Below are positions 3,129 to 25,636 of a stretch of 29,635 nucleotides of DNA, in pieces. Origin of the DNA: a bacterium. GTDB taxonomy: Bacteria > Patescibacteriota > Patescibacteriia > UBA1558 > S5-K13. The translations under genes were made by a program, and so were the position numbers. Location of the stretch: positions 1 through 29,635 of the forward strand of contig JAKPTO010000038.1 in assembly GCA_029555085.1 (NCBI GenBank). The letters are read 5' to 3'. The stretch's first letter is position 1. Every line of letters starts with the position of its first letter. The notes below the pieces were generated by a model, which searched no databases, was not told where the DNA came from, and saw only the letters and a list, made by a program, of their open reading frames with translations.

Positions 3129-3518
3129 GTGGAAAAGACGTTAATATTAGTTAGAGGATTACCCGGAAGTGGAAAAACCACATTTAGTGAATTATTTGGT
3201 AAAACTAATATTTGTTCCAATGATGATTATCATATGGTTAAGGGCAAATATGAATGGAAAAAAGAAAAAGAAGCTTTAGCACGTTTTGAATGTCAAAAAA
3301 AGTGTGAACGGCTAATGACGACAAATACACCAACGATAGTGGTGGCAAACACATTAACAACATCAGATGAAATGTCACCATATTATATTTTGGCCGACAA
3401 ATACAATTATAGAGTTTTTTCTGTCATTGTTGAAAATCGTCATGATGGAATAAGTTTACATAACGTTCCAAATGATACTATTCAAGAAATGAGAAATCGT
3501 TTTGAAATTAAATTATAA
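3129..3518 (+). CDS. small P-loop kinase (AAA_33 / polynucleotide-kinase-like)
   Basis: LILVRGLPGSGKTT Walker A, SNDDY, VVANT, and a C-terminal HNVP..TIQEMRNRFE. Confidence 0.85.
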   Translation: MEKTLILVRGLPGSGKTTFSELFGKTNICSNDDYHMVKGKYEWKKEKEALARFECQKKCERLMTTNTPTIVVANTLTTSDEMSPYYILADKYNYRVFSVIVENRHDGISLHNVPNDTIQEMRNRFEIKL

Positions 3519-3521
3519 AAA

Positions 3522-3857
3522 ATGAGTTATATAGAATATAGTAAAGTATCAGACGATCTTAAATACAAATATAGATTGTTGATAGATACAATAAAAGAAT
3601 ATGGTGAAAAACTACCGAAAAAACACGGATCATGGTATCGAGTGAAGGCATTTGACGATAACTGGCTTGTATATGATTCATGGAACGGACAGGTTTATTT
3701 GTATCGTAATGGTGCAGAACCATCTAGTCCTAACAACATGTATCATGTTGTTTATGTGTTTTTTGATAAAGACGGAAAAGTTAATAATTATTCGACAGTT
3801 GAACCACATATGGCAGATTTTTGGAGAGCACATATTATAAAAAAAAAACAAAATTAA
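3522..3857 (+). CDS. hypothetical protein
   Basis: 111-aa ORF in operon-like packing. Confidence 0.7.
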   Translation: MSYIEYSKVSDDLKYKYRLLIDTIKEYGEKLPKKHGSWYRVKAFDDNWLVYDSWNGQVYLYRNGAEPSSPNNMYHVVYVFFDKDGKVNNYSTVEPHMADFWRAHIIKKKQN

Positions 3858-3858
3858 A

Positions 3859-5766
3859 ATGAACACCGAACTTCTTGAACGAATTGAAAATAAAAAAGCA
3901 AAACTTGAAGATGTTAAAATTGCCTTGAAAGAAAAATTTATTGGTATTGATGATGTTATTGATAAAGTAATTAATAATATTTCTTTATGGTATTTAACAC
4001 CAGAAATCCAATTTAAACCATTAATTATATCATTATGGGGTATTACTGGTGTAGGTAAAACCGATCTAGTTCGTACTCTGGTTCGTCTTTTGAATTTTAC
4101 AGATAAGTTCATTGAAATTCAAATGGATGTGAAAAATGAATATAGTCGAACAATTGAAAGTTATTTAGATAATAGTGGTATTGAATCAAACGAGCCGGCA
4201 ATACTATTACTTGATGAAATTCAAAGATATCGTACAATTGATGAAGCTGGCCGTATGATTGAAAATAAATATTTTAACGATGTTTGGGTTCTACTTTCAG
4301 ATGGAAGATTTCAAAACAATTCTCGTCGTAGAGCTGATTTGATTCAAATGTTGATGGAAGAAATGTATTGGATAGATAGAAGCGATGATGATAATAACGA
4401 TAAAGATACACCAAACATAGAAACCGAAAACCCCAAAAAAAATAAAATTTATAAATATCACACATCATACTGGACTGCAAGTAGATTTAAAAAAATGTTA
4501 AATCTACAAATGTCTACTGAAGAAATTATGAAAATGACATTAGGGGAAAGAATGAAAATCATGGAAGACACTCTTAAAATTGGAAATGTCAATGAGGGAA
4601 AATCATACGAAAAACTTTTGATTTTTATTTCTGGAAACATTGATAGCGCATTTAAAATGTCTGATGATGTTGAAGATAGTGAAACTGATGCTGATGTATA
4701 TCATGAATTATCAAAAAGAGTTAATATTGTAAAAATAAAAACCGCGTTGGCCACACAATTTAAGCCCGAACAAATTGCTAGATTTGGTAATAATCATATA
4801 ATATATCCTTGTTTGGACAAAAAAAGTTATTATACTATTATTAAAAAAAATTGTCAACAAATTTTAGATAGAATTAAAAAAGAACATCATATTGTAATTA
4901 CACTATCTGATACAATTTATGATATAATATATCGTAATGGTGTATTTCCAACACAAGGGGTTAGACCCGCAATTTCTACTGTTTTTAATGTTCTTGGTAG
5001 TAATCTACCTTATTTTATGTATCATGCACTTATAAATGATGTAGACTCGTTTTATTTGGATTATAAAAACAAAAAATTATTTTCAACAATAAATGGTAGT
5101 AAAATTTCTAAGGAAATTATCTTGGATTTGGATATTATTCGTGAAAATAAGTCCATTGATGAAAAAATGCTCATAACTGTTCATGAATTGGGTCATGCAT
5201 TAGTATACGCATTACTTTATAAAACACCACCCAAACAAATAAACATTAATAGTTCTGGTCTTTCAGACGGGTTTGTTATTAATCACAGTGCGGTTGATAA
5301 TAAAACTTTCATAAGGAATCAGATTGCCATTTATTTGGCTGGACAAGCAGCGGAAGAATTGGTGTTTGGTGAAAATTTTAAATCTAGTGGTGCCTCAGCA
5401 GATATTACATTTGCTACCGATGTTGCTGGTAGATATGTTAGGGTATATGGAATGAATGGTACCGTATCAAGAATTGACAGAGAAGTGCAATCAACGTCAT
5501 TCCATATGAATTATGATGTTGATGCTACTAATATTGAAATTGAAAAAATTCTATCTGAAGAAAAGAAAAGAGCCACAGATTTATTAAATAAAAATATAAA
5601 AGTTTATAAGGAACTTATTCGTTTTACAATTACCACAAACGATATTACTATTAATGACTTTCTCATTATTTGTAATAATTTTGATATGGGTATTGTACCA
5701 AAAGAAATTAATGAAAAATTAATTTATTCATATGATGAAAAAGTCAGACATTTTTTAGAGCAATGA
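3859..5766 (+). CDS. AAA+ ATPase fused to an M41 (FtsH-type) zinc peptidase domain, no transmembrane segment
   Basis: Walker A GITGVGKT, Walker B LLLDE, Clp-like FKPEQIARFG; C-terminal HELGHA, LAGQAAEELVFG, GASAD and YGM motifs of peptidase M41. Confidence 0.85.
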   Translation: MNTELLERIENKKAKLEDVKIALKEKFIGIDDVIDKVINNISLWYLTPEIQFKPLIISLWGITGVGKTDLVRTLVRLLNFTDKFIEIQMDVKNEYSRTIESYLDNSGIESNEPAILLLDEIQRYRTIDEAGRMIENKYFNDVWVLLSDGRFQNNSRRRADLIQMLMEEMYWIDRSDDDNNDKDTPNIETENPKKNKIYKYHTSYWTASRFKKMLNLQMSTEEIMKMTLGERMKIMEDTLKIGNVNEGKSYEKLLIFISGNIDSAFKMSDDVEDSETDADVYHELSKRVNIVKIKTALATQFKPEQIARFGNNHIIYPCLDKKSYYTIIKKNCQQILDRIKKEHHIVITLSDTIYDIIYRNGVFPTQGVRPAISTVFNVLGSNLPYFMYHALINDVDSFYLDYKNKKLFSTINGSKISKEIILDLDIIRENKSIDEKMLITVHELGHALVYALLYKTPPKQININSSGLSDGFVINHSAVDNKTFIRNQIAIYLAGQAAEELVFGENFKSSGASADITFATDVAGRYVRVYGMNGTVSRIDREVQSTSFHMNYDVDATNIEIEKILSEEKKRATDLLNKNIKVYKELIRFTITTNDITINDFLIICNNFDMGIVPKEINEKLIYSYDEKVRHFLEQ

Positions 5767-6316: not shown

Positions 6317-7200
6317 TGGGTGGTGGTTATTATTCATTAGAAAAACGCTCGTTTAGAGCAAGAACTTTGGGGTATACAACCAAAGCTACACATGAGATTT
6401 TTCAAAGGCGTTCAATTAATAACGCAATGAACCCTCATGGAATTGTGATAAGAGAATCACGTGATTCGGATGAACATCCCAATTCATTGTCAATCATATT
6501 AGGATTGGATGTAACTGGCTCAATGGGTACTATTCCACATTTTCTCGTGAAAGATGGATTACCAACCCTCATGGGAAAAATTATTCAGGGTGGTATTGTC
6601 GACCCCCAGATATTATTCCTTGCCATTGGTGATCATGAATGTGATGATGCACCACTACAGGTTGCTCAATTCGAATCAAGTGATGAACTGCTTGACAAAT
6701 GGCTTACCGATGTTTATCTTGAAGGTGGTGGTGGTGGCAATTACGGGGAAAGTTACCTTCTTGCGTGGTATTTTGCAGGATATCATACATCAATTGATTG
6801 TTATGAAAAAAGAGGACAAAAAGGTTTTCTTTTCACAATTGGCGATGAACCCACGTTAAAGGAAATACCAAAACATTATCTTAAAGCAATAATGGGTGAT
6901 GGTCAATATTCTAATATGAGTGCAAGTGCTCTTTTAGAAAAAGCAAGTGAGAAATATCATTGCTTTCATTTGCATATTAAAGAAACGAATGCTGGTAGCC
7001 GTCAGGAAACTATTAATGGTTGGAAGCAGTTAATGAGTGACAACCTTATCGTGGTTGAAAACAAGAATGATGTTGCAAAAATAATTGCAAACAAAATTCT
7101 CGAAATTCACGGAACAACTTCAACAATATTAGAAGAAAATTCCATGACAAAGCAAGATGTAATAACAAACGATGATAATAAAATCGATATTATTTTGTGA
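6316..7200 (+). CDS. von Willebrand factor A (vWA) domain protein
   Basis: MIDAS-like LGLDVTGSMG, AIGD, EGGGGGNYGESY and FTIGDEP motifs. Confidence 0.85.
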   Translation: MGGGYYSLEKRSFRARTLGYTTKATHEIFQRRSINNAMNPHGIVIRESRDSDEHPNSLSIILGLDVTGSMGTIPHFLVKDGLPTLMGKIIQGGIVDPQILFLAIGDHECDDAPLQVAQFESSDELLDKWLTDVYLEGGGGGNYGESYLLAWYFAGYHTSIDCYEKRGQKGFLFTIGDEPTLKEIPKHYLKAIMGDGQYSNMSASALLEKASEKYHCFHLHIKETNAGSRQETINGWKQLMSDNLIVVENKNDVAKIIANKILEIHGTTSTILEENSMTKQDVITNDDNKIDIIL

Positions 7201-8345
7201 TAATGATTGGTAAAGCAGTTATTGGGATTGGGTTTGGGGATGAAGGAAAGGGTATAACAACCGATTTTCTTTGTTCCCAATCCCGTAATCCTATGGTAGT
7301 GAGATTTTCGGGTGGACATCAAGCAGGTCATACTGTTGTATTAAACGGTGTTAGACATGTATTCTCTAATTTCGGCTCAGGAACATTACGTGGTGTGCCA
7401 ACTTACTGGTCTAAGTATTGTACCGTTAATCCAATTGGAATTATTAACGAATACAATAAATTAATAGATAAGGGTGTTATACCCAAACTTTATATTGATG
7501 AAAAGTCCCCGATAACAACACCATATGATGTATTGTATAATCAAACTGTTGAAAGAGTTAAATTACACGGTAGTTGTGGCGTTGGTGTTGGGGCAACTAT
7601 TGAAAGAGAAGAAAATTATTATTCTCTACTGTTTGGAGATATATTTTATCCGTCTGTTTTTAAAATAAAATTAGAGGAAATAAGGAAATATTATTCTTTT
7701 AAAGACGAAAAATTTTTATTCGTTGATGTTGATGAGTTTATTAAATGTGTTGAACTTATCAAAGAAAATAAAAATATACAAATAACTAATGGAATACCTT
7801 ATTATTTACCATATTCATATCATAAATATGACGAATTGATTTTTGAAGGTTCCCAAGGATTATTACTGGATGCATCTATTGGCTTTTTTCCCCACGTCAC
7901 AAGAACAAATGTCAGTACAAAAAATATCGTTGATATGGGTTATTCTCCAAAAATATATTTAGTGACAAGGGCATACCAGACACGACATGGAAACGGTGCA
8001 ATGACTAATGGGCATATTCCAAATAACATAAAAATTGATATTAACGAAACAAATCATAAAAATAAATATCAGGGTGAGTTCAGGCGTGCAATTCTTGATT
8101 TGGACTTGCTAAAATATGCAATTTGTAAAGATGACTATATAAGAAATCAGGCATACAAATCTCTTGTCATCACGTGTCTTGACCACGTAGTTGATGAATA
8201 TAGATTTACTTATCAAGGAGAAATCATAAATTCTCTAAACCAAAATGAGTTCGTGGAAAAAATCAGTAAGATTTTAAAAATCAATGATATCTATATCAGT
8301 GAAACAAATGAAGCTGATAATATTAAAAAATTTAAAAACACGTAA
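7197..8345 (+). CDS. adenylosuccinate synthetase-like protein (divergent PurA family)
   Basis: GFGDEGKG, RFSGGHQAGHT, FEGSQGLLLD, FPHVTRT, TRAYQTRHGNG and TCLD motifs; the substrate loops differ from canonical PurA. Confidence 0.85.
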   Translation: MIMIGKAVIGIGFGDEGKGITTDFLCSQSRNPMVVRFSGGHQAGHTVVLNGVRHVFSNFGSGTLRGVPTYWSKYCTVNPIGIINEYNKLIDKGVIPKLYIDEKSPITTPYDVLYNQTVERVKLHGSCGVGVGATIEREENYYSLLFGDIFYPSVFKIKLEEIRKYYSFKDEKFLFVDVDEFIKCVELIKENKNIQITNGIPYYLPYSYHKYDELIFEGSQGLLLDASIGFFPHVTRTNVSTKNIVDMGYSPKIYLVTRAYQTRHGNGAMTNGHIPNNIKIDINETNHKNKYQGEFRRAILDLDLLKYAICKDDYIRNQAYKSLVITCLDHVVDEYRFTYQGEIINSLNQNEFVEKISKILKINDIYISETNEADNIKKFKNT

Positions 8346-8844: not shown

Positions 8845-9510
8845 ATGGAACACAATGATTTTTTAAACAGAGTTTTTGATGAAGGCATTAAGGCCGCAAC
8901 TGCAGATTATACTAACCCTGATGATAAACATCGACTAAAGCCAAAAAGATTTGAACTTAGAATGTATTTCTTTGTAGCACATAATCTAAGTTCCATTCAA
9001 CAAGGAATTCAGGCAGGTCACGCCGCTTTGGAATATGCCGATAAATTTGGTAATGATGAAACATTCATTGATTTTGTAAGAAACTGGAAAACTTGGATAA
9101 TACTTAATGGTGGTACAACTAATAATAAAAAAGATGTTAATGGAATTGCGTTAGGTACTTTAAATCAAATTGCTGATGAATTGGAAGATAATGAAATTTC
9201 TTATGCATGTTTCCATGAACCCGAATTAAATAATGCACTAACCGCACTATGCTTTATCGTGGATGAAAGAGTGTTTAATTATGTTGATTATCCTGATTTT
9301 GTTAACTGGCTTCATGACATTAAAATGACTGATGAGGCAAAAAAAGAAATAAAAAAGAAAAATCCCACATTTTGGTTGACACTAAAATTACAACCAAAAA
9401 CACAACAAGAAATGTTTCCCGAATATTATAAAGAATGGATTGAATTTTTTGGCGGTAATAAAAATGTGTATCTTCGTGAATTGTTGAAAAATAAAGAATT
9501 AATACAATAA
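8845..9510 (+). CDS. peptidyl-tRNA hydrolase 2 (PTH2)-like phage protein
   Basis: MYFFVAHNLSSIQQGIQAGHAALE, TWIILNGG and FHEPELNNALTALCF follow the PTH2-fold pattern (QxxHA...EP...T). Confidence 0.6.
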   Translation: MEHNDFLNRVFDEGIKAATADYTNPDDKHRLKPKRFELRMYFFVAHNLSSIQQGIQAGHAALEYADKFGNDETFIDFVRNWKTWIILNGGTTNNKKDVNGIALGTLNQIADELEDNEISYACFHEPELNNALTALCFIVDERVFNYVDYPDFVNWLHDIKMTDEAKKEIKKKNPTFWLTLKLQPKTQQEMFPEYYKEWIEFFGGNKNVYLRELLKNKELIQ

Positions 9511-9522
9511 AATAATAAACAA

Positions 9523-9864
9523 ATGAAACAGTTTTTAGCATATGATGGTATAAACAATCATTGGGAATTGTTTAATACAATTGAAGAAGCTCGAGATTAT
9601 TTAGAAGAAATATTTCTAGATCCAAATAATGATAGTTATCATCCGGATTTGGCCAGTTGTAAAATTTATCAACTTGTCGAAACTGTGGAATATGAAATAA
9701 TTGATAGTAAAAAAAATTATAAATATTTTCATGATGATGATATACCAATTGATGCTGAAGATCATGAAATATGGCCTTATGATGATATGTTTGACGAATT
9801 ATGGCAACATAAGTTCGTTCCTATAGCGCAAAAAGAAATGAACGACAAAAAAATCGAAAAATGA
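9523..9864 (+). CDS. hypothetical acidic protein
   Basis: 113-aa ORF. Confidence 0.7.
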   Translation: MKQFLAYDGINNHWELFNTIEEARDYLEEIFLDPNNDSYHPDLASCKIYQLVETVEYEIIDSKKNYKYFHDDDIPIDAEDHEIWPYDDMFDELWQHKFVPIAQKEMNDKKIEK

Positions 9865-10139
9865 ACAAAAGACAAAACGCTTATTTTTGTAGAAAATGTA
9901 AAAAAGCAACGATCACTATTGATGTACATGAAGGAACAACACCAATGTTTATATCATGTCCTAGTTGTGGTGGTGATGCAATATCTTTTATGTATCAATT
10001 ACCACGAATATTACTTATGGAAGAACCCGAATATGAATGGTACATGCCAGATGTAAATGAAACTAATGTTCTTTCTAATCAAGAAAAAGAACATGTATTA
10101 AATGGTGGTTTGTTATTAAGAAAACGCACAAAAATATAA
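9861..10139 (+). CDS. zinc-ribbon hypothetical protein
   Basis: CRKC...CPSC pairs. Confidence 0.7.
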   Translation: MNKRQNAYFCRKCKKATITIDVHEGTTPMFISCPSCGGDAISFMYQLPRILLMEEPEYEWYMPDVNETNVLSNQEKEHVLNGGLLLRKRTKI

Positions 10140-10143
10140 TAAC

Positions 10144-10353
10144 ATGGAAAAATTGATACAAAATTTTATAACACATAGAGAACAAACAATAGAGGAGTTA
10201 GCAATAACACACCCTGATTTTGTTTTTGATCTTAATAATCTTTTCGAAAATCAAAAAAAAGTGATGAAAAAGAAATTAAAAGATGAGTTTAAGAAAGGTA
10301 TTGAAGATGGAAAAATAATTGGTCAATATGGATCTGTAAGTTATATTGAATAA
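10144..10353 (+). CDS. hypothetical protein
   Basis: 69-aa ORF in operon-like packing. Confidence 0.65.
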   Translation: MEKLIQNFITHREQTIEELAITHPDFVFDLNNLFENQKKVMKKKLKDEFKKGIEDGKIIGQYGSVSYIE

Positions 10354-10365
10354 ATAAAAAACATC

Positions 10366-11007
10366 ATGGAAAATTTACAAAAATATTTAAAACACCTCCC
10401 AACATGTTGGACACAACAAGACTATAGAGAATTGGATGATGCATTAGCGCACACACCAGACATTTTCAGAGATGAGAATTGGTTAAAATTTTATGAAGAT
10501 GTAACAAAAAAACGCAACACATGTAATTGTGGTTATGATGAAACTATTGGTTATTATTATCCACTTCCTTTTATTGAATGGTTCAGAACGATAGAATTTT
10601 ATAATATATTCAATGAAGAACTTCATGTAAATGGAATGGTGTGGACTACTGATGACGGAAAAAAATTTACTACAGTTAAAGAAATATATGAGTTCTGGCG
10701 GGAACTAGGTTATGATAAACCAGTAGTGAAAAATTCTGAGTCACAACCCGAAGAATCTGAAATAGTAAAACCATATATGACAGTAATTATCAAATTACAT
10801 CCCAAACAACAAAATCCACAAACTGCCCAATGGTACATGACAACCAATGGTCAAAAGATGTTAACTAATGGACCGGTGGTTGTTATTCACACAAATAATT
10901 TAAACTATATATTAGATGATATAGACCTTCGGGAAATAATAGATATTAAAATAGAACGAAAAAGATGTGATTATCAAGAAAATATAAATTCACCTTTAAA
11001 AGATTAA
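10366..11007 (+). CDS. hypothetical protein
   Basis: 213-aa ORF. Confidence 0.7.
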   Translation: MENLQKYLKHLPTCWTQQDYRELDDALAHTPDIFRDENWLKFYEDVTKKRNTCNCGYDETIGYYYPLPFIEWFRTIEFYNIFNEELHVNGMVWTTDDGKKFTTVKEIYEFWRELGYDKPVVKNSESQPEESEIVKPYMTVIIKLHPKQQNPQTAQWYMTTNGQKMLTNGPVVVIHTNNLNYILDDIDLREIIDIKIERKRCDYQENINSPLKD

Positions 11008-11016
11008 TTTTTAAAT

Positions 11017-11412
11017 ATGAAATTTTATAGATATGAAACTGTTCAATATGCTGAACACGATTTTGATGGTGATTTTATGAGACCGTCATTTCCCAATCCG
11101 ACATTAGAATGTCGTGAATATGTTTTAATTAAAGAAACACCAAAAGGTTATTGGATTGGTTTTTATTCTTATAAACCGCCATACGATAATTGGAAGTATA
11201 TTTGGAAAAAATGGGTGAGCAAGACATCAAAAAAAAGGTTTGCTTATCCTTCACGAGAAGAGGCTTTAAACAATTATATTAAACGAACTGAAAGACGAAT
11301 TAAAATTTTGGAGTGGAATTTAGAATTATGTAAGGGAGGTTTAGAAAAGGCAAAAATTAAAGAAATACAAATTCAAAATGAATATAAATTAAAATCACAA
11401 AACGAAATTTGA
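11017..11412 (+). CDS. hypothetical phage protein
   Basis: 131 aa; KETPKGYWI...KWVSKTSKKRFAYPSREEAL motif of a type common in phage ORFs. Confidence 0.75.
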   Translation: MKFYRYETVQYAEHDFDGDFMRPSFPNPTLECREYVLIKETPKGYWIGFYSYKPPYDNWKYIWKKWVSKTSKKRFAYPSREEALNNYIKRTERRIKILEWNLELCKGGLEKAKIKEIQIQNEYKLKSQNEI

Positions 11413-11433
11413 AATTATTTATAAAAAAAAAAC

Positions 11434-11640
11434 ATGGAAGTAGTTAAAGTTTATTCACCAGTAGAAGACAAAAAAATTCGTGAAAATCTTGGGAAATCAC
11501 CAATTTGGAGTGGTCAGCGTTATCATATTGATGAACTTGCTGAAGCAAAGAAAAAACATTCTGTACTTTTTGAATATACATTTAAATTCGATGGACTCAA
11601 GGTCGTTCAATTCACAGGTATGAAAAAAATTACAAAATGA
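11434..11640 (+). CDS. hypothetical protein
   Basis: 68-aa ORF. Confidence 0.65.
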   Translation: MEVVKVYSPVEDKKIRENLGKSPIWSGQRYHIDELAEAKKKHSVLFEYTFKFDGLKVVQFTGMKKITK

Positions 11641-11804
11641 AATTAACTGCGATATTTTTTAAAGATGGTTATGGGTGGTTTAGAATTCTCGGTAAGGGGC
11701 TGTATTGGAAAGACATTAATCGTCATCCATTAATTTTTAGTGAACAATATGGATTTAAAAAAGTATTTACCATTGGAAAATGGAGAATTGGATTATTAAA
11801 ATAA
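11637..11804 (+). CDS. small hypothetical protein (55 aa, not in the ORF track)
   Basis: ATGA overlap with the previous stop; MKLTAIFFKDGYGWFRILGKGLYWKDINRHPLIFSEQYGFKKVFTIGKWRIGLLK*. Confidence 0.65.
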   Translation: MKLTAIFFKDGYGWFRILGKGLYWKDINRHPLIFSEQYGFKKVFTIGKWRIGLLK

Positions 11805-11836
11805 AAAATAAAATTGATTTTTTTTTTTCAAAAATA

Positions 11837-11868
11837 TTTGGTAATTTAAAAAACATTACTTATATTTG
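11837..11868 (+). promoter_or_regulatory. Bacteroidota sigma70-type promoter (-33/-7)
   Basis: TTTG 11837-11840, 20-nt spacer, TATATTTG 11861-11868. Confidence 0.8.
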
Positions 11869-11904
11869 TATTCTGAACATAACAATAAACATAAACTTCT
11901 CATC

Positions 11905-12843
11905 ATGAAAAAGAACTCACTCACACCGAACAAAGGATTAAGTCTTTCACAGGCACAATCAATCTCTAATCTTTGTTATCAAAAATCAATTGAAATCACT
12001 AAGAAATTTGAATCAATTAATAATGCCACCAAAATAGTTGAAATCGAAGGAAAGGGGGAGGTTGAAATAGTTAAAGGTCGTCCAATCCCATCTAATGTCG
12101 TTGATCTCATTAAAGAGAAAGCCGAACTTCATGCTTGCCAAGCATTTCTTATGGAAAATATTAAGGCAAAAGATGAGATGCTTTTAAATGCAAAAAACGC
12201 AACCGTTGATCTTAGTGGTATTGAAATTCCTGAACCGTGGGTAAATGAAGATCCGGTAATACTTCCCCCGGTAAACGAGGATTGGGGTTGGGAACAATTA
12301 TCTGTTTCTGAGATAAATGAATTTATTGAAGCAGAGGCTTATGCCGCACATATAGGACAATTTATTCATGGTGGATCGGTTCTTAATGAGTTAAGAGAAG
12401 AACTTCCTAATATACCTGACATTGAATGGATGGTTATTAAAGATGGTGAAAAGAGTCCGGTTATGATTAAAATTCATCACACTTCTGAACAACTTTTACA
12501 TATTCATGAACAACTAGCCGAGTTACACCGTGTTTACGAACAAAAGGTGAATTACTTTAAAGCTAAAGTTAAAAATTTGGTGACTAAAGAAAATGCTCGG
12601 ATTGCAAAAATTAATGCTGATGCTCAGGCTAATGCTGAAAAGATCAATAAAGATAGATATGAGAAATATGAGGTCGAATATGCAAAGGCAACTGAAAAGA
12701 TGAAGACAGCTAAAGCTAAGTTTGAACAAGAACGTCAGCGGGCTATCGAAGAAATCGCATCGATGAGAATAGAAGTTGATCCAAGATTTGTGAAAACTAT
12801 TGATATGTTTTTGGGTAATTCCCCCGGTCCTGGTTGTGTATAA
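11905..12843 (+). CDS. long alpha-helical/coiled-coil protein of unknown function
   Basis: Start moved to ATG 11905 because the TTG at 11866 lies inside the promoter -7 box. Long E/K/A-rich helical segments, especially in the C-terminal third. Confidence 0.85.
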   Translation: MKKNSLTPNKGLSLSQAQSISNLCYQKSIEITKKFESINNATKIVEIEGKGEVEIVKGRPIPSNVVDLIKEKAELHACQAFLMENIKAKDEMLLNAKNATVDLSGIEIPEPWVNEDPVILPPVNEDWGWEQLSVSEINEFIEAEAYAAHIGQFIHGGSVLNELREELPNIPDIEWMVIKDGEKSPVMIKIHHTSEQLLHIHEQLAELHRVYEQKVNYFKAKVKNLVTKENARIAKINADAQANAEKINKDRYEKYEVEYAKATEKMKTAKAKFEQERQRAIEEIASMRIEVDPRFVKTIDMFLGNSPGPGCV

Positions 12844-12844
12844 A

Positions 12845-13121
12845 AAAAAAATAAGGTGAAAGAAAGACAGAGCATGAGCCGAAGTTTTTCTTTCTTTATA
12901 CTTAGTGGTGTGGTTCTTTAAAATGTAACCTTTAGTTCTTCATCTAAGAATGATAGGCTAGAAGTTTATCAAATGGAAGTTAACGCCTCTTCCACAAATT
13001 AAGTTTTTTATTTTTTTAAGACTTAGTTTTTGTCTTTGTCATTGTGTGGAAGAGGGTCTTTGACCTTGACTTGGATTTTAACTGAGGCTATATACCACAT
13101 CACTAGGTGACTTATTTTTTT
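12845..13121 (+). ncRNA. candidate large structured ncRNA (family not recognised)
   Basis: Nested stems found by hand: 12845-12855/13111-13121 (11 bp), 12859-12867/12889-12897 (9 bp), 12900-12914/13094-13108 (15 bp, 2 G-U), 12978-12983/13078-13083, 12986-12996/13045-13055 (11 bp perfect), 12997-13007/13018-13028. G-U pairs favour the + strand. Confidence 0.75.
13029..13076 (+). repeat. degenerate hexamer repeats (consensus near YTTGWC) in two tracts
   Basis: TTTGTC TTTGTC ATTGTG at 13029-13046 and GTC TTTGAC CTTGAC TTGGAT at 13056-13076. Confidence 0.65.
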
Positions 13122-13136
13122 CATAAAAAAGTTAAC

Positions 13137-14111
13137 ATGCTAGAAAAGAGAAAAATAAAAGAATATGAAGAATTGGAAACCGTTGCTCTTACATGTAATG
13201 AAGAATATGTTTCCGATACATGTCAATGGGTTGTAGATGACAACAGTTTTTTTAGTATCGGTAAAACAATTCAACAACTTCCGCCAGGATTTTACAGTTA
13301 TATTTTTGATCATTCAATCAATAAAATTCGTTTAACAAGGATAAAAGTCATTACTGATAATATTCTTACTTTACCTGATCCCGTACTCAACAATATTTTA
13401 CTTGATTTTCAAAAATTCTGGGAGAATAGAGAGCGTTATCAAAAATATGAATTCGTCTATAAACGAGCATATTTAATGTATGGACCGCCAGGATGTGGTA
13501 AAACATCCTTAATTGCCTTATTATCCAAAGAATTAATAAAAAGAAATGGTGTTATCTTAAATATTAATACTGTCGATCAAATTGAGCTATATGACCGGGT
13601 AATTAAAGATATAAGAGACATTGAAAAAGAAAAGCCACTAATTGTTATTATTGAGGATATTGACGGATATACCGAATTTGGAAATATTTCAAGATTATTG
13701 AACATTTTAGATGGTACATATCAAACCGATAATGTAATTATAATTGCAACAACAAATTATCCGGAAAGGCTTGAAGAAAGATTTTCATCAAGGCCATCAA
13801 GATTTGATGTTCGTGTGCTTATTGATGTACCCTCACCAGAAGTTAGAGAATTTTATATAAAATCAAAACTTAAGCCAGAAGATCTTGCAAGAATCGATAT
13901 AAATGAATGGATAAGAAATACTGAAGGTTTTACTCTCGATCATCTTAAGGAATTAATATTGTTAACGTTTGTTTTGGATAATCCATTTGATGATTCACTC
14001 ATTCAAGTAAAAGAAATGATAAAAAATGTGAAAATAAAGAATGTTACAATTAAACGAGGATTACCTACACCCGTTGGATTTTCAAATCAGAATGAAAAAA
14101 TAAAACAATAA
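13137..14111 (+). CDS. AAA+ ATPase (classical AAA clade)
   Basis: YGPPGCGKT, IIEDID, LLNILDG, ATTNYPERL and SRPSRFD. Start moved to ATG 13137 because the GTG at 13107 lies in the RNA stem. Confidence 0.9.
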   Translation: MLEKRKIKEYEELETVALTCNEEYVSDTCQWVVDDNSFFSIGKTIQQLPPGFYSYIFDHSINKIRLTRIKVITDNILTLPDPVLNNILLDFQKFWENRERYQKYEFVYKRAYLMYGPPGCGKTSLIALLSKELIKRNGVILNINTVDQIELYDRVIKDIRDIEKEKPLIVIIEDIDGYTEFGNISRLLNILDGTYQTDNVIIIATTNYPERLEERFSSRPSRFDVRVLIDVPSPEVREFYIKSKLKPEDLARIDINEWIRNTEGFTLDHLKELILLTFVLDNPFDDSLIQVKEMIKNVKIKNVTIKRGLPTPVGFSNQNEKIKQ

Positions 14112-14115
14112 AATT

Positions 14116-14457
14116 ATGGCATTTGTATATTGTAAAAAATGTGGTTGGGATCAGGACGATTTTTGGTATTTTAAAATTCAATGGAAAAAAATATTCAAAT
14201 GGTCGTCTCGTCCGCTTGGATATAATCCATTGTCTCTAGTTTTGGAAGATATTGCAATATGGGGGAAACCAAGATATATTAATCTTGACGTTGGACGAAC
14301 ACATTCGTGGAAATTACTTATATTTGATGTTAAAAGACATTTAAAATTATTATTTACTCAAAAATGGTGGACAGAACACTCGTTTACAAAAGATTATTTT
14401 CGAAAAAAAGCAAAATGTCCCAATTGTGGTTCAACTGACGATTTTATTATTGATTAA
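14116..14457 (+). CDS. zinc-binding hypothetical protein
   Basis: CKKCGWDQDDFW...CPNCG. Confidence 0.7.
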   Translation: MAFVYCKKCGWDQDDFWYFKIQWKKIFKWSSRPLGYNPLSLVLEDIAIWGKPRYINLDVGRTHSWKLLIFDVKRHLKLLFTQKWWTEHSFTKDYFRKKAKCPNCGSTDDFIID

Positions 14458-14469
14458 AATAATGTAAAA

Positions 14470-14847
14470 ATGAATGAAGAAAAATTGGTAACATTTAATA
14501 CTGCAAAATTAGCCAAAGAAAAAGGCTTTAATGTGAGCTGTTTATGGTGGTATCATTTGGATACTCGTAATTGTTACCCATTACATGATGTGAATAGAGT
14601 GAGAGAAAAATTTCATGGAAAAAATATTCATGCACCAACACAATCATTTTTACAAAAATGGTTAAGAGAAAAACATAATATTAATGTGTTAGTACAGGAG
14701 TCAAATATTTCTGATTTATATAAATGTATGATTGGTAAAAAAGATCGTAGGAAAGATATTTCTACTGATACTTTATATACATCTGATTATAAAACGTATG
14801 AAGATGCAATTGAAAAAGGGTTATATTTTGCATTAAAAATGATATGA
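14470..14847 (+). CDS. hypothetical phage protein
   Basis: VTFNTAKLAKEKGF...APTQSFLQKWLREKHNI...TYEDAIEKGL; a pattern familiar from Bacteroidota phage ORFs. Confidence 0.8.
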   Translation: MNEEKLVTFNTAKLAKEKGFNVSCLWWYHLDTRNCYPLHDVNRVREKFHGKNIHAPTQSFLQKWLREKHNINVLVQESNISDLYKCMIGKKDRRKDISTDTLYTSDYKTYEDAIEKGLYFALKMI

Positions 14848-15260
14848 AACAAAATTTTCTTAATCGAATTGAAGAGTTTGGAAAACCCATGTTTGATTTA
14901 TTGTTCGATTTAGAAGACGAACAATTAAAAAAAATAATTTTTAACATCCTCGGAACTGATTTGATGGAATGGGTAAAGCAGGGTACAGTTATAAAGACAA
15001 TTATAAATAACATACCATCAAAAATTGAAATTTGTCGACATAATTGTATTGAAATCAATTATTTTGGTATTTTATACGTTCCTAAAAACGGACGTAAAAT
15101 AGTTTTGAAAGAATTTGATAATGACTTTAAATTACTAAACAAATTATTTGCCGAAGATTGTCGATATTTTGATGAAGCACAAGGAAGAAATAAATGTACA
15201 CATAGAGAAGTGAATATAAAAAGATGTTTAGGTATTTGTGAAAAATTTGAACAAAAATGA
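14844..15260 (+). CDS. hypothetical protein
   Basis: 138 aa, ATGA overlaps on both sides. Confidence 0.7.
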   Translation: MKQNFLNRIEEFGKPMFDLLFDLEDEQLKKIIFNILGTDLMEWVKQGTVIKTIINNIPSKIEICRHNCIEINYFGILYVPKNGRKIVLKEFDNDFKLLNKLFAEDCRYFDEAQGRNKCTHREVNIKRCLGICEKFEQK

Positions 15261-17159: not shown

Positions 17160-17955
17160 TATTGCAACGCCAGTGCCTATTGAGAAACCTCAACCAACAC
17201 CAACAATGTCATCCACTACAATACCTGATGTTCCAATTAATATTTGGGAAGATTTAAAACCATTGAATTTGAGTAAAATACAATGGTATATATATCCGGA
17301 AAATAAATATTTCAAAAACGAATATCAAAAAAAACAAATTGTTCTTCATCATACGGTATCTGGTCCACATATTGATGGTGATGTAAATTCATGGATACGA
17401 AATAAACATAATGTTGGGACTACAATAATTGTTGATCGGGATGGTACACCGTGGCAATTATTCAGTAGTAAATATTGGGCATATCATCTTGGTATTGGCA
17501 CAAATAGTCACTATCTTGACAAACATTCTATAGGTATTGAACTTGACAATTGGGGTGGTCTAACCAAAGGAAGTGGTTCACTTAAATTCTTCAAAACCAA
17601 AAAATATAAGTTGGGTAAATGGAATCTGAAAGGAACTGACACAAATAAATATTATAATGATTATGGTGGGGTGGTTGATACCCCAATACAATATTATCCA
17701 GAAGGCTTTAGGGGATATTATTATTTTGAAAAATATACTGAAAAACAAATAAGAACCGTTGGTGAATTATTGTTGCTTTGGAGAGATAGATATGGTATTC
17801 CTCTCACATTTAATGAAGATATGTTTGAGTTTTCATCAGATGCGATAGATGGTAAACCCGGTGTCTGGACACATGTTAGTTTCAGGAAAGACAAATCTGA
17901 TTGTCACCCACAACCCGAATTGATTGATATGTTAAAAACAATTCAAAATTTATGA
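17125..17955 (+). CDS. N-acetylmuramoyl-L-alanine amidase (Amidase_2), candidate endolysin
   Basis: IVLHHT, WAYHLG, SIGIELDN and WTHVSFRKDKSDCHP zinc-amidase motifs; Pro/Thr-rich N-terminal linker. Confidence 0.85.
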   Translation: MNPCLNLFKKNNIATPVPIEKPQPTPTMSSTTIPDVPINIWEDLKPLNLSKIQWYIYPENKYFKNEYQKKQIVLHHTVSGPHIDGDVNSWIRNKHNVGTTIIVDRDGTPWQLFSSKYWAYHLGIGTNSHYLDKHSIGIELDNWGGLTKGSGSLKFFKTKKYKLGKWNLKGTDTNKYYNDYGGVVDTPIQYYPEGFRGYYYFEKYTEKQIRTVGELLLLWRDRYGIPLTFNEDMFEFSSDAIDGKPGVWTHVSFRKDKSDCHPQPELIDMLKTIQNL

Positions 17956-18016
17956 TTAATCTGCGGGAAAACCCACTTCTTTAGTTGTGGGATGAAAGCA
18001 GCCTTTAAAAAAAGAT

Positions 18017-18049
18017 TTTGTTTTTTAAAATATTTTTAATGTATTTTTG
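18017..18049 (+). promoter_or_regulatory. Bacteroidota-type promoter inside the IS left end
   Basis: TTTG 18017-18020, 21-nt spacer, TATTTTTG 18042-18049. Confidence 0.6.
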
Positions 18050-18097
18050 TAAAAATTAGTTTAGCGACTATTTAACCACCGATAAAGAACATAAAAT

Positions 18098-18183
18098 ATG
18101 AAAGAACCGAAGCACAATAAACAATAGGTTCTATAAGTGAAGAAACTGTAAGGAAATATATAGAAAATAAAAAGAATGCTTAG
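18098..18183 (+). pseudogene. tnpA: internally deleted Y1 (HUH) transposase remnant
   Basis: MKEPKHNK (from 18098) joined out of frame to TIGSISEETVRKYIENKKNA* (18121-18183), the typical IS200 TnpA C-terminal helix with the catalytic Tyr. Confidence 0.75.
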
Positions 18184-19330
18184 AGCCATCAAATATGAAC
18201 TTAATCCTACCAAGGCACAGAAAACCTTGATAAAACAATCTTGTGGTTGTTGTAGAAAGGTGTATAATGTGATGCTTGATAGGAAGATTGGTGCATATAA
18301 AAAAGATGGTACAACGCTTTCAGCATTTGAACTCATTAACCAACTACCCAAGCTGAAGTCTGAATTAGAATACTTAAAGGAATGCCCAAGTCAAGCATTA
18401 CAACAAGTAATCAAAAATCTTGATAAAGCATATCAGAACTTTTTCAGAAAAGGTGGTAATGGTTATCCTAAATTTAAGAAGAAAGGAATAAAAGATAGTT
18501 TCAGAATACCAGTTGCTTGTGCAATTGATTATGATAATTGGACTGTCAAAACAGCAAAAATTGGAACTATTAAAATATACAAGGGACATAACAAACAAAT
18601 TAAAGGAACAATTAAATCCTATACTATAACTCATACAAATACTGGTAAATATTTCATTTCAGTACTATATGAGACTATGGATAAACCTAAGTTGAATAAT
18701 AACAAGTCAGTTGGTATTGATATTGGCATTAAGGACTTTGCAACATTAAGTGATGGAACTGTGTTTGAAAACCAAAAACACTTGAAATCAAATCTTAAAA
18801 AATTAAGAGTATTGCAAAGAACTGCAAGCAGGAGATATCAAAAAAACAAAAAAAGAGAAGAACAGTCAAATAACTGGAAGAAGTCTGTAAGACAAGTTGC
18901 AAAATTACATGAACGCATTACCTTTCAAAGAAATGATTATTTGCATAAAATAAGTACATGGATAGCAAATAATTATTCTATAATATGTATAGAAACTTTG
19001 AATGTAAAGGGAATGATGAAAAACTATCATCTCGCACAAGCAATATCAGATTGTGGCTGGAGTAAGTTTGTTAATATGCTTGAATACAAATGTGATAATC
19101 TTGTCAAGATAGACAAGTGGTTTGCAAGTAGTCAGACTTGCTTTGAATGTGGATATAAAAACACAAACATAAAAGATTTGTCCATAAGAGAATGGACTTG
19201 TCCTGTTTGTGGAACATATCACAACAGAGATTTGAATGCTGCTAAAAATATAGAGAGGGAAGGACTATCCCTTTGTGGGCATAAAGTAAGTGGTTGCACT
19301 ATGCTTGCCCCAAGAACCCCACCACTTTAG
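18176..19330 (+). CDS. tnpB: TnpB RNA-guided endonuclease
   Basis: N-terminal HTH (GCCRKVYN), RuvC-I GIDIGIKDF, RuvC-II IETLNVKGM, zinc finger CFEC...CPVC, RuvC-III HNRDLNAAKNI. Confidence 0.95.
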   Translation: MLRAIKYELNPTKAQKTLIKQSCGCCRKVYNVMLDRKIGAYKKDGTTLSAFELINQLPKLKSELEYLKECPSQALQQVIKNLDKAYQNFFRKGGNGYPKFKKKGIKDSFRIPVACAIDYDNWTVKTAKIGTIKIYKGHNKQIKGTIKSYTITHTNTGKYFISVLYETMDKPKLNNNKSVGIDIGIKDFATLSDGTVFENQKHLKSNLKKLRVLQRTASRRYQKNKKREEQSNNWKKSVRQVAKLHERITFQRNDYLHKISTWIANNYSIICIETLNVKGMMKNYHLAQAISDCGWSKFVNMLEYKCDNLVKIDKWFASSQTCFECGYKNTNIKDLSIREWTCPVCGTYHNRDLNAAKNIEREGLSLCGHKVSGCTMLAPRTPPL

Positions 19331-24490: not shown

Positions 24491-25636
24491 ATGAAAAAAT
24501 ACATAAGTTCGGAATATGTGGGGATTGGTCATCCCGATAAAATTGCCGACCAAATTTCAGACACAATATTAGATAAATTTTTAAGTGTTAATCCAAAATC
24601 AAGAGTGGCCGTTGAAACACTTGTATCTGATAATAAAGTTATTGTTGCTGGAGAAGTAAATAGTGATATTACAATTAGTGATGATGATTTAAAAGAAGAA
24701 ATTATTAAAACGGTTTCTAGAATTGGTTATAAAAAAGATATTCCATGTACTTTTCGTGAAGATAATCTTGATATTAGTATTTTTTTAAGACAACAGTCAC
24801 CAAATATACAGGAAAGTGTTGATAAATCTAATGGTACTATTGGCGCGGGTGACCAAGGTATTATGTTTGGATATGCAACATCCGAAGAATCAGCTTTTTA
24901 TCTTCCGATGCCATATGTGTTGGCCGCAGAGCTTCTTATAACATTAAATTTTAAAATCAATACTGGTGAACTTGACGGAATTTATACGGATAACAAATCA
25001 CAAGTTTGTTGTGTTTATGATAATGATAGGATATATATTGACAAAATAATTCTTTCAACATTTCATAATAAAAAATTAAATGTTAATGATGTTCGAAAAA
25101 TACTTAAACAAAAAGTAATAGATGATGTACTTAAAGGGTATGAACGATTTATTTTAAAAGATCATGATATTAAATTTCTCATTAATTCAGCCGGACCATT
25201 TTGGGTTGGTGGTCCTGAGGCTGATACTGGTTTGACTGGTAGAAAAATTATTGCCGACACTTATGGTGGTTTTGCACCACATGGTGGTGGTGCATTTAGT
25301 GGTAAAGATCCATCCAAAGTAGATAGATCTGCAACATATATGGCTCGACATATTGCAAAAAATTTAGTTGCGAATGGTTATTGTAATCACGCAACAGTAC
25401 AATTGTCATATGCAATTGGAGACACACAACCATTTAGTATATCAGTTAGCAGTGATCAAGTAAATATTGATAAATCATTAGAACAAAAAATTTTTGAAAC
25501 ATTTGATTTATCACCACAAGGAATTATTAATTATTTAGAATTAACAAATCCTTTACGAGTTAAATATAAAACAATCTCATCTGGTGGTCATTTTTTCGGA
25601 TTAAATACCCCGTGGGAAAAAATCATATCTTTTTAA
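24491..25636 (+). CDS. metK: S-adenosylmethionine synthetase
   Basis: GHPDKIADQISD, GAGDQGIMFGYA, DTGLTGRKII and GGGAFSGKDPSKVDRS signatures. Confidence 0.96.
   Translation: MKKYISSEYVGIGHPDKIADQISDTILDKFLSVNPKSRVAVETLVSDNKVIVAGEVNSDITISDDDLKEEIIKTVSRIGYKKDIPCTFREDNLDISIFLRQQSPNIQESVDKSNGTIGAGDQGIMFGYATSEESAFYLPMPYVLAAELLITLNFKINTGELDGIYTDNKSQVCCVYDNDRIYIDKIILSTFHNKKLNVNDVRKILKQKVIDDVLKGYERFILKDHDIKFLINSAGPFWVGGPEADTGLTGRKIIADTYGGFAPHGGGAFSGKDPSKVDRSATYMARHIAKNLVANGYCNHATVQLSYAIGDTQPFSISVSSDQVNIDKSLEQKIFETFDLSPQGIINYLELTNPLRVKYKTISSGGHFFGLNTPWEKIISF

Follow-up and report, generated by a model that had tools for sequence, protein, structure and literature searches.

The window analysed here is an entire contig of 29.6 kb (29,635 nucleotides (nt); JAKPTO010000038.1) from a Patescibacteriota assembly of 1.02 Mb (GCA_029555085.1). 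Its sizeable open reading frames (ORFs) all lie on the + strand, closely packed, and the gene content is phage-like, with a Dda-like helicase, a PurZ-like adenylosuccinate synthetase, an amidase, a TnpB-type transposase and an S-adenosylmethionine synthetase. Between the stop codon of a gene for a protein of 312 amino acids (aa), at 12843, and the ATG of an AAA ATPase gene, at 13137, lies a gap of 293 nt. This is the largest gap between + strand ORFs of the window (the next are 221, 216 and 197 nt), as had been pointed out in a first-pass annotation made from the sequence alone. TAA occurs in all six frames of the gap, and all three kinds of stop codon in five of the six. The gap holds the element studied here, an RNA structure at 12852-13114 (12845-13121 with its A/U flanks) that is apparently a member of an undescribed structured RNA family and is inherited together with the gene of the 312-aa protein. 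The element is single-copy, with one copy in the window and one in the 1.02-Mb assembly.

Relatives were sought by way of the 312-aa protein, which has 2540 homologues at E <= 0.001. IMG/VR was scanned with an alignment of 26 of these homologues, giving 204 encoding loci, and the best 80 of the 204 were fetched. The fetched loci are on IMG/VR contigs of 8.6 to 676 kb, and the best tblastn segment of the 312-aa protein is 47-62% identical across the 80 loci kept. Downstream of the gene in these loci comes a stretch, as a rule 170-700 nt long, in which the + strand has no sizeable ORF, and the gap sequences resemble one another and the window gap (67-90% identity over 50-400 nt). The last 104 nt of the element at its 3′ end (the 3′ block) were made into an nhmmer profile, and this was then sought within 900 nt downstream of the gene in the 78 loci with more than 150 nt there. 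It matched in 76 of these 78 protein-anchored loci, the window itself scoring E 1.2e-25. In another locus (L023) the contig ends 205 nt past the stop codon and the 5′ block is present; altogether, this RNA follows the gene on the same strand in 77 of the 78 loci with enough downstream sequence. The RNA is also kept where an ORF has been inserted in front of it. In L036 the whole element lies at 4958-5305, directly after an inserted 468-aa ORF with RHS repeats (3553-4959), and in L086 and L088 a 177-aa ORF (3421-3954) without a Pfam match stands between the protein gene and the RNA, which starts right after it.

Removal of 10 identical duplicates from the 77 elements left 67 distinct ones, of which 62 were aligned (alignment A3); L051, L058, L062, L087 and L094, with insertions and more than 440 nt long, were left out. 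In the 62 family members the element starts 0-14 nt past the stop codon. The usual size is 325-390 nt, and the window copy, 285 nt as extracted (12842-13126), is the shortest of the 67 distinct elements, compared to 305-589 nt for the others. Neither the element (blastn) nor the 312-aa protein (tblastn) had a match among GenBank phages. In addition, a search of 60 related genomes with the element gave just two matches, short, T-rich and due to chance, and the 312-aa protein was not found in 100 related genomes.

In the reverse direction, IMG/VR was searched for the RNA itself by means of a degenerate pattern made from the 3′ block, which gave at least 119 pattern loci. Among the matches listed, at least 90 RNA loci were confirmed by profile, and the protein gene was found upstream on the same strand in 83 of the 83 testable ones, so that none of these had the RNA without the protein gene. 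Seven further RNA loci were cut by the contig end, and 29 matches were chance hits to the pattern with neither RNA nor protein. The 3′ block of 56 of the 83 linked loci is not identical to that of any earlier locus. When the + strand ORFs of 81 loci were clustered, the only family in common was that of the 312-aa protein, the next neighbour family occurring in 8 of 81; the downstream gene differs between loci, at most 8 of 81 sharing a downstream family. RNA and protein gene are therefore inherited as one module while their neighbours change. The AAA ATPase gene downstream (13137-14111) was tried as an anchor and rejected. A single-protein scan of IMG/VR with it gave no match, and alignment-based scans gave 14 loci, none with the upstream protein and none with a gap before the ATPase gene. 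The RNA therefore travels with the upstream gene and not with the downstream one. As a separate observation, tRNA arrays lie directly upstream of the module in two of the 15 loci scanned (nine tRNAs at 218-1894 of L049 and seven at 1194-2469 of L087).

For the 62 aligned sequences RNAalifold proposed 36 pairs, 35 of them with compensatory double changes. Helices P1, P5 and P6 were added from column statistics and then tested, which resulted in a model of 48 pairs in eight helices. All-against-all covariation screens were too noisy for pseudoknots, because columns of purines or pyrimidines only pair with everything, and were used only to pick up these three helices. Under the 48-pair model 92.5% of alignment cells pair, compared to 69.8 ± 0.5% with partners shuffled (reached by 0 of 500 shuffles) and 37-52% when the model was slid by 1-3 columns. 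Both sides change in 46 of the 48 pairs, and the covariation score was 0.736, against 0.292 for the shuffled and 0.13-0.21 for the slid control. The features of the locus are as follows.

11838-11866, + strand: promoter-like site (TTGGTA, 17 nt, TATATT; 9 of 12 matches in a consensus scan), a putative promoter; the RNA-library contigs over the unit start at 11880, 11885, 11899 and 11912.
11905-12843, + strand: gene of the conserved 312-aa protein, upstream of the RNA in every testable locus.
12852-12855, + strand: 5′ arm of the closing helix P1 (alignment columns 14-17 with 510-513); three of the four pairs change on both sides and the fourth is an invariant G-C.
12858-12894, + strand: hairpin P2, arms 12858-12867 and 12885-12894; 10 of 10 pairs change on both sides, and 93.5% of cells pair.
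12868-12884, + strand: conserved loop of P2, with a 2-bp inner helix (12872-12873 with 12878-12879); both pairs change on both sides, and 98.4% of cells pair.
12899-12913 with 13095-13109, + strand: long-range helix P3; 14 of 14 pairs change on both sides, and 91.3% of cells pair.
12914-12985, + strand: variable region (columns 81-232 of alignment A3, mostly gaps), with lineage-specific hairpins and a length that varies by lineage.
12986-12995 with 13046-13055, + strand: helix P4, CCTCTTCCAC with GTGGAAGAGG; 9 of 9 pairs change on both sides, and 96.9% of cells pair.
12996-13045, + strand: apical region, with a short local hairpin in the window copy (about 12997-13007 with 13018-13028).
13111-13114, + strand: 3′ arm of P1, preceded by and overlapping the invariant AC (13110-13111; A and C in 62 of 62 sequences).
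13115-13121, + strand: U-rich tail after P1, assigned from the U count in the family.
13137-14111, + strand: AAA ATPase gene, the window ORF downstream of the gap.

The stems drawn in the first-pass annotation are all in the sequence where it had placed them, and the alignment sorts them. Its 5′ hairpin and its long-range stem are conserved and covary in the 62 sequences as P2 and P3, and its perfect stem at 12986-12996/13045-13055 is conserved, as P4, at 12986-12995/13046-13055. Only the inner part of its closing stem stood: the four pairs of P1 covary, whereas the outer A/U part pairs in only 11-39 of 36-60 sequences. Three further proposals were not borne out. The AGTTAA/TTAACT helix can pair in only 3 to 37 of 58-62 sequences per position; the apical stem (12997-13007/13018-13028) is not conserved, relatives having a different domain there; and the AGCC:GGCT pseudoknot could form with all its four pairs in 15 of 62 sequences, its G and first C being already engaged in the covarying 2-bp helix of the P2 loop.

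In most members a P5/P6 domain lies between the arms of P4, with a conserved internal loop in P6 and in two lineage-specific versions. Both sides change in five of five pairs of P5 and in three of four pairs of P6 in these relatives. In the row of the window copy the P5/P6 columns are largely gaps and only a UAAGUU box is kept there, which in the window fold pairs with a GACUUA box. Position by position, 52-60 of 61 sequences would allow this pairing; the two boxes hardly vary, hence there is no covariation signal. Five sequences fit P6 and not the alternative pairing, which could be a switch or chance.

As the first-pass annotation had suggested, the fold was compared to that of shuffled sequences and sought downstream of homologous genes. 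The + strand of 12840-13140 has a minimum free energy of −87.3 kcal/mol, compared to −60.1 ± 4.5 kcal/mol for 100 dinucleotide shuffles, none of which was as good (z −5.99), and in a separate test of the window copy with 30 shuffles z was −6.9. The − strand of the same stretch reached −65.4 kcal/mol (z −3.99). All of 18 family members folded better than their shuffles, with a median z of −4.2 on the + strand (range −1.7 to −7.1) and of −3.85 on the − strand, so thermodynamic z-scores of these 18 members cannot separate the two strands. The strand is given by the mismatches. In the modelled pairs of the 62 sequences, G-U and U-G occur 236 times, compared to 48 times for A-C and C-A, which points to selection on the + strand transcript, in line with the G-U pairs that the first-pass annotation had noted in the window copy. 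The structure of the RNA is under selection, and the RNA strand is +. The conserved, covarying structure behind homologous genes and the folding beyond shuffles support the claim of a functional non-coding RNA. Rather than being free-standing, it is most likely a trailer of the transcription unit of the upstream gene, with which it is inherited.

Conservation is not confined to the helices, since the best-conserved stretch, 13056-13094 (+ strand), is predicted to be unpaired. UUG triplets occur on both sides of the 3′ arm of P4. On its 5′ side they are 6 nt apart (13030-13032, 13036-13038 and 13042-13044), with a GACUUAG box at 13020-13026; on its 3′ side they lie at 13060-13062, 13066-13068 and 13071-13073 and are followed by a CUAUAUA box (13088-13094). 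In the alignment, G stands at columns 426, 432 and 438 and again at 459, 465, 471 and 477, each time after UU and with an exact spacing of six columns. The GGU after P1 (12855-12857, overlapped by the 5′ arm of P1) and the AC before its 3′ arm are invariant in the 62 sequences. Behind P1, at least five of the next nine nucleotides are U in 48 of the 62 members.

Sequencing runs of wastewater, digester and biofilm samples contain the stretch, 14 of them DNA runs and six RNA runs. For four RNA libraries, Logan contigs were placed on 11800-14200.

11880-13111: contig of run X16, depth 687.
11885-13418: contig of run X19, depth 500.
11912-13526: contig of run X15, depth 78.
11899-13649: contig of run X18, depth 9.

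The adjoining contigs of runs X16, X19 and X15 have depths of 2-8, and in X16 the depth drops from 687 to 6 at 13111. The X16 contig ends at this position, right after the invariant AC and one nucleotide before UUAUUUUUUU, and continues into adapter-like letters, which we take to be Illumina adapter. This is a weak hint of an RNA 3′ end at 13111. Co-transcription of the RNA with the gene of the 312-aa protein at a high level is thus supported, but not proven. The first-pass annotation had expected a discrete transcript in metatranscriptomes; high-depth contigs do cover the gene plus the RNA, but contig means cannot resolve separate RNA species. The X18 contig has one A fewer in the A run over the stop codon and the start of the element (12832-12851, poly-A at 12842).

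The 312-aa protein belongs to no Pfam, PHROG, PADLOC or PDB family. Pfam gave only coiled-coil noise below its cut-offs for the 26 members, and PADLOC only insignificant matches over a coiled-coil stretch (Cas12f rows at E 0.0077 and 0.022), while a sequence profile search of PDB reached E 0.75. An AlphaFold2 model (predicted local distance difference test, pLDDT, 80.9) consists mainly of long helices with two small sheets. Foldseek found no fold match for this model in PDB, the best hits being coiled-coil look-alikes (E 0.099); BFVD gave only an uncharacterised viral homologue and the ESM Atlas no usable match. A homodimer model scored 0.54, compared to 0.00 for the best of three controls. 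Of proteins solved as pairs of one chain, 20 of 30 reached this mark; of those solved as single chains, one of 23 did. The dimer runs agree in at least 6% of contacts, with a partner pLDDT of at least 68. Self-association of the 312-aa protein is thus supported at the level of structure prediction.

Taken together, the locus probably represents a new phage RNA-protein module of large uncultivated phages. For its mode of action we tentatively favour, at not quite an even chance, that the RNA works as a ribonucleoprotein with the upstream protein. The ribonucleoprotein is favoured because the pair is inherited as a unit, because both partners are unusually conserved and because the periodic unpaired triplets resemble a platform for a repeating protein. 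A strongly expressed + strand unit, probably of a single gene, would run from a promoter near 11840-11866 through the 312-aa gene and the RNA to the U-rich tail. The RNA would be made as the co-transcribed 3′ trailer of this unit, could be stabilised at, or trimmed back to, the base of P1/P3, and may then join the predicted dimer of the upstream protein, with the periodic UUG stretches and the conserved loops as candidate binding sites. A more detailed version, which we consider doubtful, is a new phage ribonucleoprotein widespread in huge phages, in which the dimer would load along the UUG tracts of 6-nt period flanking P4, the folded core being the scaffold or active part. In the course of infection it might be made in very large amounts, for example against a conserved host machine or for phage structure.

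Several points weigh against a ribonucleoprotein. We only infer the contact of the 312-aa protein with the RNA, and in Pfam and PDB searches the protein had no recognisable RNA-binding domain or fold; moreover, one of the three dimer runs scored only 0.07. An RNA acting solely in cis, on the mRNA that carries it, would be equally expected to show the strict linkage and the gene order. Since the window copy is without P5/P6, at least this domain is dispensable, or the copy is decaying. The aligned sequences share ancestry, for which reason the shuffle control overstates the significance of the pairing; the slid control is free of this fault. As for the transcript, two of the four RNA contigs extend 300-400 nt past the element, and contig depth is a whole-contig mean that gives neither strand nor ends nor the RNA apart from the mRNA. 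DNA in the RNA libraries is possible as well, although the 100-fold step between neighbouring contigs argues against it.

The main rival, which we regard as possible but rather unlikely, is a purely cis-acting 3′ untranslated element. The long-range P3/P1 helix and the U tail would end transcription of a gene expressed at a very high level, and the compact fold would protect the mRNA from 3′ exonucleases or tune translation, with no RNA acting in trans and no protein complex. It accounts well for an element that is always on the same strand directly behind the gene, at 0-14 nt from the stop codon, that ends in a U-rich tail in 48 of 62 members and at which the X16 depth falls from 687 to 6. 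However, it does not account for the amount of conserved architecture: eight conserved helices, invariant unpaired boxes, the periodic UUG triplets and the P2 loop are kept across phages with unrecognisably different flanks, which exceeds what a terminator or stabiliser needs. Moreover, no standard terminator-like hairpin was called in 11500-13400 (0 sites), and where an ORF has been inserted (L036, L086 and L088) the RNA stays and follows that ORF.

That the RNA acts in trans and independently of the protein seems improbable to us. It could then titrate a conserved host factor as a decoy or sponge, or self-assemble like ROOL and GOLLD, and would be linked to the gene only through the strong promoter of that gene. 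The conserved unpaired sequence does suggest a conserved partner, the depth in RNA libraries is high, and the tRNA arrays (of nine and seven tRNAs) upstream of two of 15 relatives are a setting typical of ROOL and GOLLD according to the available part of PMC12286853. However, among the matches listed all 83 testable RNA loci had the protein gene although every other neighbour varies, the protein itself is unusually conserved (47-62% identity), and the RNA matches none of the ROOL, GOLLD and OLE models of Rfam.

A DNA-level element is very improbable. It might be a sigma-70-type promoter of the downstream genes (TTGACT, 17 nt, TATATA at 13066-13094), a miniature inverted-repeat transposable element or an origin that has short repeats. 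TTGAC-like words and a TATA-rich box in the 3′ block do have promoter-like spacing, and the ends of the element are inverted repeats. However, the TATATN box ends in T in only 6 of 62 sequences and the C ahead of it never varies, neither of which fits a −10 hexamer, the consensus scan called no promoter at 13066-13094, the downstream depth in X16 is about 100 times lower, the excess of G-U over A-C (236 to 48) indicates selection on the + strand RNA, the 6-nt period is not that of the DNA helix, and a transposable element is at odds with a single copy in the window and the 1.02-Mb assembly and with a position relative to one gene that is fixed in all loci.

The remainder of the window gives the setting of the module. 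The contig was binned in a 1.02-Mb genome that is 99% complete, and it is probably a phage fragment, either mis-binned or from a phage infecting that organism. The adenylosuccinate-synthetase homologue lies at 7197-8345 (phrog_1211, with a PurZ-type annotation, E 7e-53; Pfam Adenylsucc_synt, E 1.1e-46), and judging from this homology 2-aminoadenine may substitute for adenine in the phage DNA. A hydrolase-like ORF (8845-9510, phrog_3668) is found near it. An FtsH-like protein with AAA and M41 peptidase domains is encoded at 3859-5766, and the phage-borne S-adenosylmethionine synthetase, with all three MetK domains, at 24491-25636. The TnpB-type gene at 18176-19330 is complete (HTH_OrfB_IS605, OrfB_IS605 and Cas12f1-like TNB domains; phrog_506, E 2.8e-122), and the 221-nt gap of the window (17955-18176) lies ahead of it. 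The ATGs at 11905 and 13137 have no purine-rich ribosome-binding site ahead of them.

Hundreds of genes in a huge phage are without an assigned function, and to our knowledge almost nothing is known about the non-coding RNAs of such phages. The module described here combines one protein family with one RNA family of roughly 330 nt, and its sequence, structure and gene order are kept across contigs that range from 8.6 to 676 kb. Its depth in metatranscriptome contigs from wastewater is about 100 times that of its flanks. A module conserved and expressed in this way usually has a role central to infection. The family supplies a testable target in the form of a consensus structure, nucleotides that never vary and a candidate partner protein.

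In agreement with the first-pass annotation, which had recognised no named family, the RNA matched none in Rfam 15. Nothing reached the gathering score in the window, and in 15 relatives only tRNAs elsewhere in the loci did. When the window element and two full-size members were scanned permissively against Rfam, the matches were all at chance level (E 0.37-8.4), and ARAGORN found no tRNA or tmRNA gene in the window. A full-text literature search found no account of the RNA, supplementary motif tables of metagenomic RNA-discovery papers lying outside its reach, and an earlier listing as an unnamed candidate motif in such tables is possible. The available parts of PMC9723584, PMC7674155, PMC12286853 and bioRxiv 10.64898/2026.09.15.751765 contain no description of it.

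Two known kinds of element were rejected. A group I intron is at odds with the Rfam scans, in which the sole intron row (13203-13280, E 2.5) is inside the AAA gene and none covers the element, and with a downstream gene that is not the same from locus to locus. For a retron msr-msd there is no reverse transcriptase by Pfam and PHROG among the ten ORFs of 8845-15260. Intrinsic terminators and 3′ stabilising stem-loops that follow highly expressed phage genes are alike in their place right after the stop codon, in a closing helix followed by a U-rich tail and in the sharp fall of RNA depth. In contrast to terminators, the closing helix here encloses a conserved structure of several domains, about 250-380 nt long, in which there are invariant unpaired boxes.

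The omega-RNA (reRNA) of TnpB/IS605 elements is likewise a structured RNA; it is encoded at the 3′ end of a protein gene and beyond, is transcribed along with that gene and binds the gene product. A TnpB/IscB omega-RNA was rejected here, as Pfam recognised no OrfB_IS605, RuvC or Cas12f-like domain in the upstream protein or its 26 homologues. The true TnpB of the window (18176-19330) is easily recognised, and no transposon ends were seen at the module. The prohead (packaging) RNA of phi29 is another structured RNA encoded by a phage, and it functions together with an assembly of phage proteins. It is mentioned in the available part of PMC12286853. The phi29 RNA differs in size, architecture and phage group; in addition, the module has no link to packaging genes, and the element matches no Rfam family.

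A cellular parallel is OLE, whose partner (Oap) genes are located nearby. OLE is a large structured non-coding RNA working as a ribonucleoprotein, according to the available part of PMC12054373. It is about 600 nt long and found in Bacillota, and the protein studied here resembles none of the families searched. Among phage and prophage RNAs there is a likeness to ROOL and GOLLD, which are also large, multi-helix, strongly covarying and phage-carried. They are often near tRNA islands, and no protein partner is identified for ROOL in the part of PMC12286853 that was available. In our family arrays were upstream in two of the 15 loci scanned and none is in the window, and none of the ROOL, GOLLD and OLE models matched. 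At about 285-390 nt the RNA is smaller than ROOL and GOLLD, and it is tied to one protein gene. It would extend the short list of large structured RNA classes from phages.

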